From the IMG/VR virus record IMGVR_UViG_2534681831_000011: a stretch of 12,566 nt of DNA; one strand, given 5' to 3'. A program made the translations under genes and the position numbers. This document shows, in pieces, positions 5,227-5,515 of this stretch. Every line of letters starts with the position of its first letter. The first letter of the stretch is position 1. The notes below the pieces were generated by a model. It was given only the letters and a program-made list of their open reading frames with translations. It ran no database searches and was not told the DNA's origin. The DNA comes from a virus (taxonomy: Duplodnaviria; Heunggongvirae; Uroviricota; Caudoviricetes).

Positions 5227-5315
5227 CCCGCCCCGGGGGGGGATCATCCGGCGAAAAAAACGATCGCCCCGGACACCGCCCCCCGTCTCATGCAGAGAAA
5301 AAATTCCTGTTTCAG

Positions 5316-5441
5316 GCCAGTTAACATGTTAACTGGCTGCCCGGGCATTTTTGCGGTTTTTATCTTTATTATTCAGTTTGTTGTGCGAAAAAAATGTTAA
5401 CTGGCTTTTTCAGCAAATGTTAACCAGGCAGCAGTTAACAT
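5316..5441. repeat. Cluster of GTTAAC-core sites including a 22-bp perfect palindrome; candidate terminase-binding (cosB-like) or operator elements
   Basis: Perfect palindrome GCCAGTTAACATGTTAACTGGC at 5316-5337. ATGTTAAC(T/C)(G/A)G half-sites at 5394-5405 and 5417-5428, and inverted CAGTTAACAT at 5432-5441. Flanked by A-tracts and a G8 run (5236-5243). Confidence 0.45.
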
Positions 5442-5515
5442 TTGCGGCATGAGACGCCGGGAAAAATGGGCTGAACCATACCCGGCTGAGTGCGTTCTGG
5501 ACCCGGGAGGAGGCT

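Follow-up and report, generated by a model that had tools for sequence, protein, structure and literature searches.

A probable cos packaging site with a putative TerS recognition array in lambdoid Shiga-toxin prophages

The spacer between the HNH and TerS genes

The stretch of DNA analyzed here (12,566 nt, IMG/VR record IMGVR_UViG_2534681831_000011), in the following called the window, carries a 289-bp spacer at positions 5227-5515. Directly upstream lies an HNH endonuclease gene (4861-5226, plus strand; PF01844 with E=7e-7, phrog_589). Its product is a presumed terminase cofactor in cos cleavage and agrees at 119/121 positions with that of a gene annotated as 'putative DNase' in the Stx1 phage Lys8385Vzw. 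Most related loci also show an HNH gene directly 5' of cos. On the other side of the spacer, the gene of the small terminase subunit TerS (5516-6079, plus strand; PF03592, phrog_641) begins with a GTG start codon. From sequence reading, a strong ribosome-binding site GGGAGGAGG is found at 5505-5513 (plus strand). TerS combines an N-terminal Terminase_2 helix-turn-helix domain with a conserved C-terminal module, i.e., residues 2-57 match PF03592 with 35.7 bits (cut-off 26.1), and the C-terminal ~50 residues are common to TerS proteins with unrelated N-termini.

The large subunit TerL follows at 6076-7737 (plus strand) and shows an HK97-type ATPase and nuclease (PF03354, PF20441). It is 57% identical to the TerL of Burkholderia phage Bcep176, a 3'-cos phage, and 84% identical to that of Salmonella phage FSL SP-016. 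Further downstream, we find a prohead protease-capsid fusion (7800-9737) and the portal (9949-11313). The HNH, TerS and TerL genes hence flank the spacer as the earlier note on this DNA had stated. Its reading of the region as an HK97-style HNH-cos-TerS-TerL packaging region is supported by the termini of the sibling phage Lys8385Vzw, which were assigned by PhageTerm and lie inside this region.

The window is 98% identical to lambdoid phages that convert their hosts to Shiga-toxin producers, namely Stx2a_1447, BP-4795, 2851 and many Stx1a/Stx2c prophages. The 289-bp spacer itself occurs in 1244 out of 5426 complete genomes of E. coli, which carry as many as 7 copies each. Among phage records, it matches this locus alone, which speaks against a mobile element as the source of the ~180-bp insertion it contains (see below).

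Cohesive ends and cleavage core

In the study of Zhang et al. 2021 (PMC7946995), phage Lys8385Vzw was induced, its virion DNA was sequenced, and PhageTerm reported cos packaging with the 10-nt 3' cohesive ends CGCCCCCCCT. In the respective record (MT225100), the terminus reads ...CGATCGCTCCGGACAC-CGCCCCCCCT, i.e., GGACAC stands before the overhang, and the record's start CTCACGCAGAGAAAAAATTCCCGTTTCAGGGCAGTTAACATGTTAACTGGC runs via the same distal half-sites as in the window into TerS. Start and end of the record are collinear with window positions 5271-5337. When joined end-to-start, the record shows 95.3% identity to window 4685-7885, and beside the HNH protein also TerS (183/187 positions) and TerL (543/553 positions) are nearly identical.

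In the alignment column of the Lys8385Vzw end, the window shows CGCCCCCCGT at 5277-5286 (plus strand), which we predict to be its 10-nt 3' cohesive end. It differs from CGCCCCCCCT by one base and stands between GGACAC (5271-5276) and CTCATGC. That is, cleavage is predicted to fall at 5286/5287 in the top strand and at 5276/5277 in the bottom strand.

The same alignment column holds the ends of four other phages. For Bcep176, the 10-nt sequence CGCACGTTCC is found at both record ends (terminal redundancy), followed by CTCACGCGCAGAAAATTTTCCCTTTTCAGG. The PhageTerm-mapped 3' overhang CGATCGGTTC (cosR) of Variovorax phage VarioGold comes right after GGAAAC (PMC9658991). In Acinetobacter phage fEg-Aba01, GGACAC is followed by the annotated '3' cohesive end' CGCCCCCCAT and the record starts with CGCACGCACAAAAAAAATTCCC, while the right end of HK97 reads ...TGAC-CGCCGCCAAA. 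Few or no further anchors were gained when Burkholderiales-type cores were compared to the phage collection by BLAST. By homology to the ends of the sibling and of these other phages, the locus has fixed ends with a 3' extension of about 10 nt, and we take their position as established by alignment to one mapped sibling and four other anchors.

To describe the surroundings of the cut, about 240 loci were gathered, using the TerS protein and subsequently the core motif as probes. A comparison of about 180 related loci shows that cleavage core and TerL are conserved and that the downstream repeats track the N-terminal DNA-binding domain of TerS. The core common to these loci consists of a G-run that is followed at some distance by GGACAC, GGAAAC or CTAGAC, 10 nt, and CTCACGCRCAGAAAAWWTYCC. 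One of these three 6-mers directly precedes the overhang in 146 of 184 unique sequences. The TerL proteins of core-sharing loci are 52-84% identical to the window's TerL, which includes loci with an unrelated TerS N-terminus.

Given the mapped phages and related cores, the G8 run of the window (5235-5242, plus strand) represents a conserved element that flanks cos towards the packaged end. The earlier note had listed the run at 5236-5243 and suggested that it could mark the cleavage site. The run is present, but one base further left, and the cleavage site is found elsewhere, since the 10-nt overhang at 5277-5286 lies 34 bp downstream. A G-run is found to end 32-35 nt ahead of the overhang in HK97, Bcep176, VarioGold, fEg-Aba01 and Lys8385Vzw, i.e., in all five mapped anchors, as well as in most of the 184 unique cores. 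This rules out the run as cut site and leaves it as a conserved flank.

Between G-run and overhang, the upstream half of the core (5243-5276, plus strand) contains two GATC sites, ends with GGACAC and aligns with the respective regions of FSL SP-016, Lys8385Vzw and fEg-Aba01. The downstream half CTCATGCAGAGAAAAAATTCCTGTTTCAG (5287-5315, plus strand; +1 to +29 relative to the cut) comprises an A6 tract and is conserved across taxa. It is kept from Enterobacterales to Burkholderiales and Acinetobacter for any type of TerS N-terminus, that is, it tracks TerL. A phasing of the A-tracts, as had been proposed, is not observed. A/T tracts start at 5254, 5298, 5348, 5357, 5388, 5406 and 5462, and the resulting spacings of 44, 50, 9, 31, 18 and 56 bp do not follow a period of 10-11 bp, i.e., they are not multiples of ~10.5 bp.

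A core-like motif at 4701-4717 within the DUF3950 gene is probably a chance match, given more than 3 ungapped mismatches to the real core. We also treat the inverted repeat CCCCCCGTCTCATGC / GCATGAGACGCCGGG (5279-5293 and 5447-5461) as chance, since it is not kept in a more distant locus with a long spacer (L109).

The GTTAAC sites and the TerS N-terminus

Positions 5316-5337 (+30 to +51) hold the palindrome GCCAGTTAACATGTTAACTGGC, which is perfect over 22 bp, as the earlier note had claimed, and represents a putative TerS recognition element. The three further half-sites in both orientations that had been noted within 5394-5441 are found as well. Within the whole 12.6-kb window, ATGTTAAC occurs 5 times and all copies are located within 5320-5441 (5320-5327 minus, 5326-5333 plus, 5394-5401 plus, 5417-5424 plus, and 5434-5441 minus strand). 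The expected number is 0.23 and none of 200 shuffles reaches 5 copies. The motif is thus found between cut and TerS more often than by chance, as is to be expected for a cosB-like element.

The distal half-sites are AAATGTTAACTGGC (5392-5405, plus strand), with one column that varies among E. coli-type spacers and an invariant GTTAAC core, AAATGTTAACCAGGC (5415-5429, plus strand), and the oppositely oriented GCAGTTAACATTTGC (5431-5445, minus strand), for which 5431-5442 is invariant in E. coli-type spacers. The latter two form an inverted pair with 12-nt arms of 100% complementarity and a 9-nt gap. Palindrome and distal half-sites are separated by an AT-rich spacer (5338-5391) within a lineage-specific insertion, which is conserved in E. 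coli-type loci and absent from FSL SP-016 and other short forms. In 58 unique E. coli-type spacers, the palindrome core GTTAACATGTTAACTGG is invariant and the distal half-sites are nearly free of substitutions, while the adjoining 5443-5470 varies. Since E. coli-type spacers are 95-99% identical throughout, the invariance of the half-sites is weak evidence when taken alone. No match to the IHF consensus WATCAANNNNTTR was found in 5227-5515 with at most 1 mismatch allowed.

The distance to the cut is conserved on a broader scale. For nearly all loci with helix-turn-helix TerS, in short and long forms of the spacer alike, a GT[TA]AA site begins at position +33 to +36 relative to the cut; the first site of the window starts at +34. 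In short forms, to which most helix-turn-helix-type loci belong (e.g., FSL SP-016), HNH and TerS are only ~105 bp apart and an imperfect palindrome GTAAACATGTTAAC extends over the TerS start codon (ATG TTA ACA). The palindrome of the window aligns with, and is homologous to, this GTAAACATGTTAAC start region of its short-form relatives. In the window, a ~180-bp insertion (~5338-5505) parts the palindrome from the TerS start and three sites are added.

This overlap of site and reading frame is visible in codon usage. Among 77 unique short and medium forms, 73 use TTA for the Leu codon within the site, and 3 of the 4 exceptions read TTT-AAC, i.e., the protein is altered and the TTAAC DNA is kept. 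TTA is used for this codon in none of 46 unique long forms, whose TerS start has moved away from the palindrome. For hosts with at least 58% GC, TTA is found at 28/28 site codons, compared to 8/373 of the other TerS Leu codons. At the level of the compared sequences, this codon pattern reveals a DNA-level constraint on the overlapping site.

Long forms with inserts that lack evident mutual similarity are found in E. coli, in L028, in L029/L034/L217, in L143/L150/L175/L188/L237, and in L114. Each of these lineages has kept the core-side palindrome and carries 2-3 further copies of its respective motif close to the shifted start of TerS. This holds also for L114, which shows a different motif, i.e., CTATGTACATGTACATAG plus two copies of ATGTACATA.

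These observations bear on the question whether the distal part of the spacer is functional at all. Function might be limited to the proximal palindrome or to the core alone. The insertion, with its distal half-sites (5392-5445), would then be a neutral leftover of a local duplication that involved core tail and TerS start. Such a duplication is suggested by the resemblance of CTGTTTCAG plus sites (5307-5337) to CTTTTTCAG plus sites (5405-5445). It would also fit that short-form relatives package with a single site and that the entire spacer is conserved and not the sites alone. However, at least four other lineages with dissimilar insertions carry their respective motif in 2-3 additional copies close to where TerS now starts, among them one with another motif (ATGTACAT in L114) and loci with an Arg/Gly-rich TerS N-terminus such as L148. 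Also the near absence of substitutions in the distal half-sites, next to a variable 5443-5470, speaks against a relic, which we therefore consider unlikely.

Recognition by TerS, on the other hand, is in accordance with the way the motif changes between loci. At least two GTTAA/TTAAC occurrences are found in 105 of 106 unique loci whose TerS shows the M(A)LT..KRK helix-turn-helix N-terminus, compared to 0/12 for unique loci with an Arg/Gly-rich N-terminus (MPRGGARPGAGRP..., MAGVKGRSGG...). Arg/Gly-type loci instead bear (A/T)TCAAA-type repeats, e.g., GAATTCAAAG/AAATCAAAG or TTCAAATGG. Their TerS proteins keep the C-terminal 50-70 residues, which are 44-60% identical to those of the helix-turn-helix type, their TerL is 52-59% identical, and the core is conserved. 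The motif hence co-varies with the DNA-binding domain of TerS, with L114 as the one exception. Across the compared sequences, we regard the association of repeat motif and TerS N-terminal type as strict.

The exception (L114/L194) is a single contig with ATGTACAT sites despite a similar helix-turn-helix TerS. Its helix-turn-helix carries the substitutions I24K, K25R and S35N, which give no clear account of the motif change. A scan of IMG/VR for the L114 palindrome returned the same contig only.

The earlier note had also offered that the sites could be operators for a dedicated regulator. That is, the GTTAAC sites would be bound by a separate protein, e.g., the DUF3950 protein, whose gene is divergently oriented, or some unknown activator or repressor, which controls terminase and head genes, and cos would be confined to the core (5235-5315). 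Palindromic or repeated sites just 5' of a gene are indeed typical of operators, the short-form site over the TerS start codon would fit autoregulation or repression, and on the minus strand, the sites themselves make up a weak match to a promoter. A simple-consensus scan of 4300-5700, however, showed no plus-strand sigma-70-like site, which is a weak negative, and late genes of lambdoid phages are expressed by read-through from the Q-dependent late promoter, which also counts against operators at this position. Furthermore, DUF3950 is absent in every other locus tested by tblastn, while GTTAA is present in nearly all loci with helix-turn-helix TerS. The N-terminal domain of TerS is the sole component that changes with the motif, and the distance between first site and cut is fixed (+33 to +36) no matter whether the gene start is near. 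We thus disfavor the operator alternative and rate it as rather improbable.

Finally, it is very improbable that the palindrome acts within the late-transcript RNA as hairpin, terminator or translational element: it allows for a 10-bp hairpin of modest stability (-17.3 kcal/mol, z = -2.0) with T-rich tracts 10-25 nt downstream, but no plus-strand terminator-like site is called in the spacer, Rfam provides no match beyond a sub-threshold miRNA one (E=0.78), the T-run does not adjoin the stem, related long forms show no T-run after their palindromes, and many relatives (e.g., fEg-Aba01 and L130) have direct repeats, which rule out a hairpin and still permit protein binding.

Packaging model and comparison with known systems

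Taken together, we consider it likely that the spacer (5227-5515) serves as cos packaging site in a lambdoid Stx prophage of the BP-4795/2851 type and that its GTTAAC sites form a cosB-like recognition array for TerS. Two modules can be proposed. The first (5235-5315) would be the cleavage core, i.e., the G-run, 34 bp, the overhang segment CGCCCCCCGT and CTCATGCAGAGAAAAAATTCC, which would be read by TerL and the adjacently encoded HNH nuclease, possibly together with the conserved C-terminal body of TerS. The second (5316-5445) would be the cosB-like array of five GTTAAC half-sites, of which a head-to-head pair makes up the palindrome and three are located 60-110 bp further on.

According to this model, the N-terminal helix-turn-helix domains of an oligomeric TerS would bind the palindrome and the distal sites and thereby anchor the terminase next to the core, such that TerL/HNH can cut there. 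Nicks of the bottom strand at 5276/5277 and of the top strand at 5286/5287 would produce the 10-nt 3' overhang. Packaging would proceed rightwards with terminase and head genes first, until the same complex halts and cuts at the next cos. Within the E. coli lineage, the ~180-bp insertion would have shifted TerS off the palindrome along with the gain of three extra sites. From the sequence comparison, we infer the binding of TerS to the GTTAAC sites; the roles assigned to the distal sites and, within cleavage, to G-run, A-tract and HNH protein are likewise putative. Since short-form relatives manage with one imperfect palindrome, the three distal sites may be dispensable.

The array varies with the TerS N-terminus while core, TerL and TerS C-terminus stay, which suggests that the packaging signal is modular. 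Put more generally, and only tentatively given that we judge it slightly short of an even chance, cos would be modular throughout an HK97-like TerL clade that spans Enterobacterales, Burkholderiales and Acinetobacter. In this case, a fixed core (G-run, 32-35 bp, 10-nt overhang, CTCACGCACAGAAAAAATTCC) would be read by TerL/HNH and the C-terminal body of TerS, and be combined with swappable cassettes of TerS N-domain and repeats. The ancestral site on the TerS start would dictate the TTA codon, even in hosts with 60-65% GC, and would probably couple the occupancy of cos by TerS to its own expression. Insertions would repeatedly have uncoupled both and multiplied the sites. If this is true, co-resident and even defective prophages of EHEC, with up to 7 cos copies of shared GTTAAC specificity, would package one another.

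With regard to previous work, the cos position in the sibling Lys8385Vzw is already known and HNH-cos-TerS-TerL is the established HK97 pattern. We found no description of the GTTAAC array, of the way it relates to the start codon of TerS, or of the modularity of core and cassettes, neither by full-text literature searches nor in the accessible portion of the Lys8385Vzw paper. With 5277-5286, the results provide a precise prediction of the genome ends in Shiga-toxin and other lambdoid prophages of E. coli, a family that is very common. In addition, they give a testable map of probable terminase recognition, which bears on the question which co-resident prophages, satellites and plasmids get mobilized. 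The conserved core with its swappable pairs of TerS domain and repeats offers a natural system for the evolution of cos specificity. Possible uses are the engineering of cosmid-like vectors and the prediction of phage termini from sequence alone.

Among known systems, the cos of Lys8385Vzw (MT225100) is essentially the same element, with 95% DNA identity, the same palindrome and half-sites, and homologous 10-nt 3' ends. In the available part of the respective paper (PMC7946995), only the 10-nt cos sequence is given, and palindrome, repeats and core go unmentioned.

The cos of HK97, with gp74 (HNH), gp1 (TerS) and gp2 (TerL), is described in PMC11331095 and PMC9410871 and by Kala et al. 2014 as cited there. 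It resembles the window in the gene order HNH-cos-TerS-TerL, the 3' overhang of 10 nt, a G-run located 32 nt before the cut, GAC-CGCC... at the cut, and an A/T tract with a TerS site downstream of it. On the protein level, BLASTP relates the window's TerL to HK97 gp2 with 23% identity over 461 aa (E=9e-12), while the comparisons of TerS with gp1 (E=0.32) and of the two HNH proteins yield no significant similarity. Since TerS is not homologous to gp1, the HK97 analogy is one of architecture and does not extend to the TerS family. HK97 TerS reads one 15-bp site at +15 to +29 by means of an arginine clamp and the A-tract shape within the TerS channel (PMC11331095). Given the lack of TerS and HNH similarity, we do not assign the window to this gp1-type single-site recognition; here, five helix-turn-helix-type half-sites are spread over +30 to +159. 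Nevertheless, at the position of the HK97 site (+15 to +29) the window shows the conserved A-tract of its core, and TerS recognition may therefore take place in part at the core instead of the GTTAAC sites. By analogy, and as a speculation, the invariant A-tract (+12 to +17) may be read by the conserved TerS body as in HK97.

The arrangement also resembles cosB of lambda, in which the gpNu1 sites R3-I1-R2-R1 are located between cosN and the Nu1 gene. In both cases, short repeats of both orientations extend from the nicking site to the TerS gene, the last repeats are close to the TerS start, and the repeats are the presumed sites of a helix-turn-helix TerS. Lambda, however, produces a 5' overhang of 12 nt, lacks an HNH partner and depends on an IHF site, in contrast to the 3' overhang, the HNH partner and the absence of an IHF consensus found here, and the proteins are not homologous.

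With respect to TerS itself, the closest likeness in domain type is to G1P-type TerS of SF6/SPP1, whose N-terminal helix-turn-helix belongs to the same Pfam family (PF03592); the helix-turn-helix of the window's TerS weakly matches DNA-binding domains of solved structure (4zc3, 2cmp and 3zqp). SF6 and SPP1 are headful (pac) phages with pac within or beside the TerS gene, whereas the same type of domain would here serve a site-specific 3'-cos system.

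TerS start codon and putative recognition repeats

In most relatives, the putative recognition palindrome (GTAAACATGTTAAC) contains the TerS start codon; this is seen at L005 (2490-2515) and at those loci within the sets L010-L040 and L111-L120 that are of the short form. Within this overlap, the Leu codon of the palindrome is TTA even in Burkholderiales of ~60-65% GC (28/28 vs. 2% elsewhere in the TerS gene). Three loci read ATG GCT TTT AAC (M-A-F-N), that is, the protein is altered while the DNA motif is kept. Regarding TerS start annotation, the 'terminase' CDS of the sibling Stx1 phage Lys8385Vzw (MT225100; L243 185-793) is annotated from a CTG codon located 45 nt upstream of a GTG that follows a strong ribosome-binding site; the annotated start is probably over-extended.

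The locus L114/L194 (IMGVR_UViG_2816332609_000004) shares the cos core with the window, and its TerS, likewise of helix-turn-helix type, resembles that of the window (44% identical). The palindrome of this locus (L194 10472-10489) reads CTATGTACATGTACATAG, and two further ATGTACATA copies replace the GTTAAC sites. This arrangement, found on this one contig only, looks like a specificity switch. Within the TerL clade of the window, TerS proteins are chimeric, i.e., the C-terminal 50-70 residues are conserved while the N-terminus is either of helix-turn-helix type or Arg/Gly-rich. The latter N-termini (MPRGGARPGAGRP, MAGVKGRSGG) are found in the IMG/VR loci L125, L129, L135, L139, L148, L192 and others. 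Arg/Gly-type loci carry repeats of their own (AATCAAAG, TTCAAATGG, ATCAGCAAATGG), the final copy of which often covers the TerS start codon.

Cohesive end and spread of the cos spacer

Near-identical E. coli prophages differ in the 10-nt overhang (window 5277-5286), for which we observe CGCCCCCCGT, CGCCCCCCCT, CGCGCCCCCT and CGCGCCCCGT, while the flanking GGACAC and CTCA(C/T)GC are unchanged among related E. coli loci. Given this variation between fixed flanks, the cohesive-end sequence itself seems to be only weakly constrained. In total, 2948 copies of the cos spacer are spread over 1244 complete E. coli genomes; a single genome can carry as many as 7, and 6 copies are located on plasmids. 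Judged from such multiple copies, one packaging specificity would be common to many co-resident prophages in E. coli.

ISEc20 insertion and gene order

In PPompW-type prophages, one end of the IS110-family element ISEc20 lies within the cos G-run (...aaagtaac|GGGGGATCATCC) and the second end likewise adjoins a G-run (TTTCGGGGGG|gtgcccc). This is seen at L245 (LC567822.1 PPompW_132418, 1046-2504), at the place of window 5235-5242, and G-runs may be a target of ISEc20. Neither lysis genes nor an HNH gene are present between Q/tRNAs and cos in these prophages; cos, TerS and TerL are retained without the HNH partner. In the window, a P22-type antirepressor (Ant) gene (3039-3608) is located among the lysis genes. 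The head module of the window (7800-11313) shows an unusual gene order, in which a prohead protease-major capsid protein fusion of 645 aa precedes the portal gene.

Small motifs in and near the core

Two further motifs were considered and rejected. A 15-nt inverted repeat (window 5279-5293/5447-5461, CGTCTCATGC/GCATGAGACG; 13/15 complementary, 10 exact) joins the cut region with the distal end of the insertion. L109, a more distant long-form locus, does not conserve this repeat, which is thus probably due to chance. Similarly, CACGCAGAAAAATTTTC at 4701-4717, ~590 bp upstream of the real core and inside the minus-strand DUF3950 ORF (4592-4819), resembles the downstream cos core (CATGCAGAGAAAAAATTCC). 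Since it differs from the real core by more than 3 ungapped mismatches, this similarity is probably a coincidence.

The upstream half of the core contains two GATC (Dam) sites (window 5242-5245 and 5262-5265), one of which adjoins the G-run (GGGGATCA). The same holds for HK97, where a GATC also adjoins the G-run (GGGGGATCAAATC).
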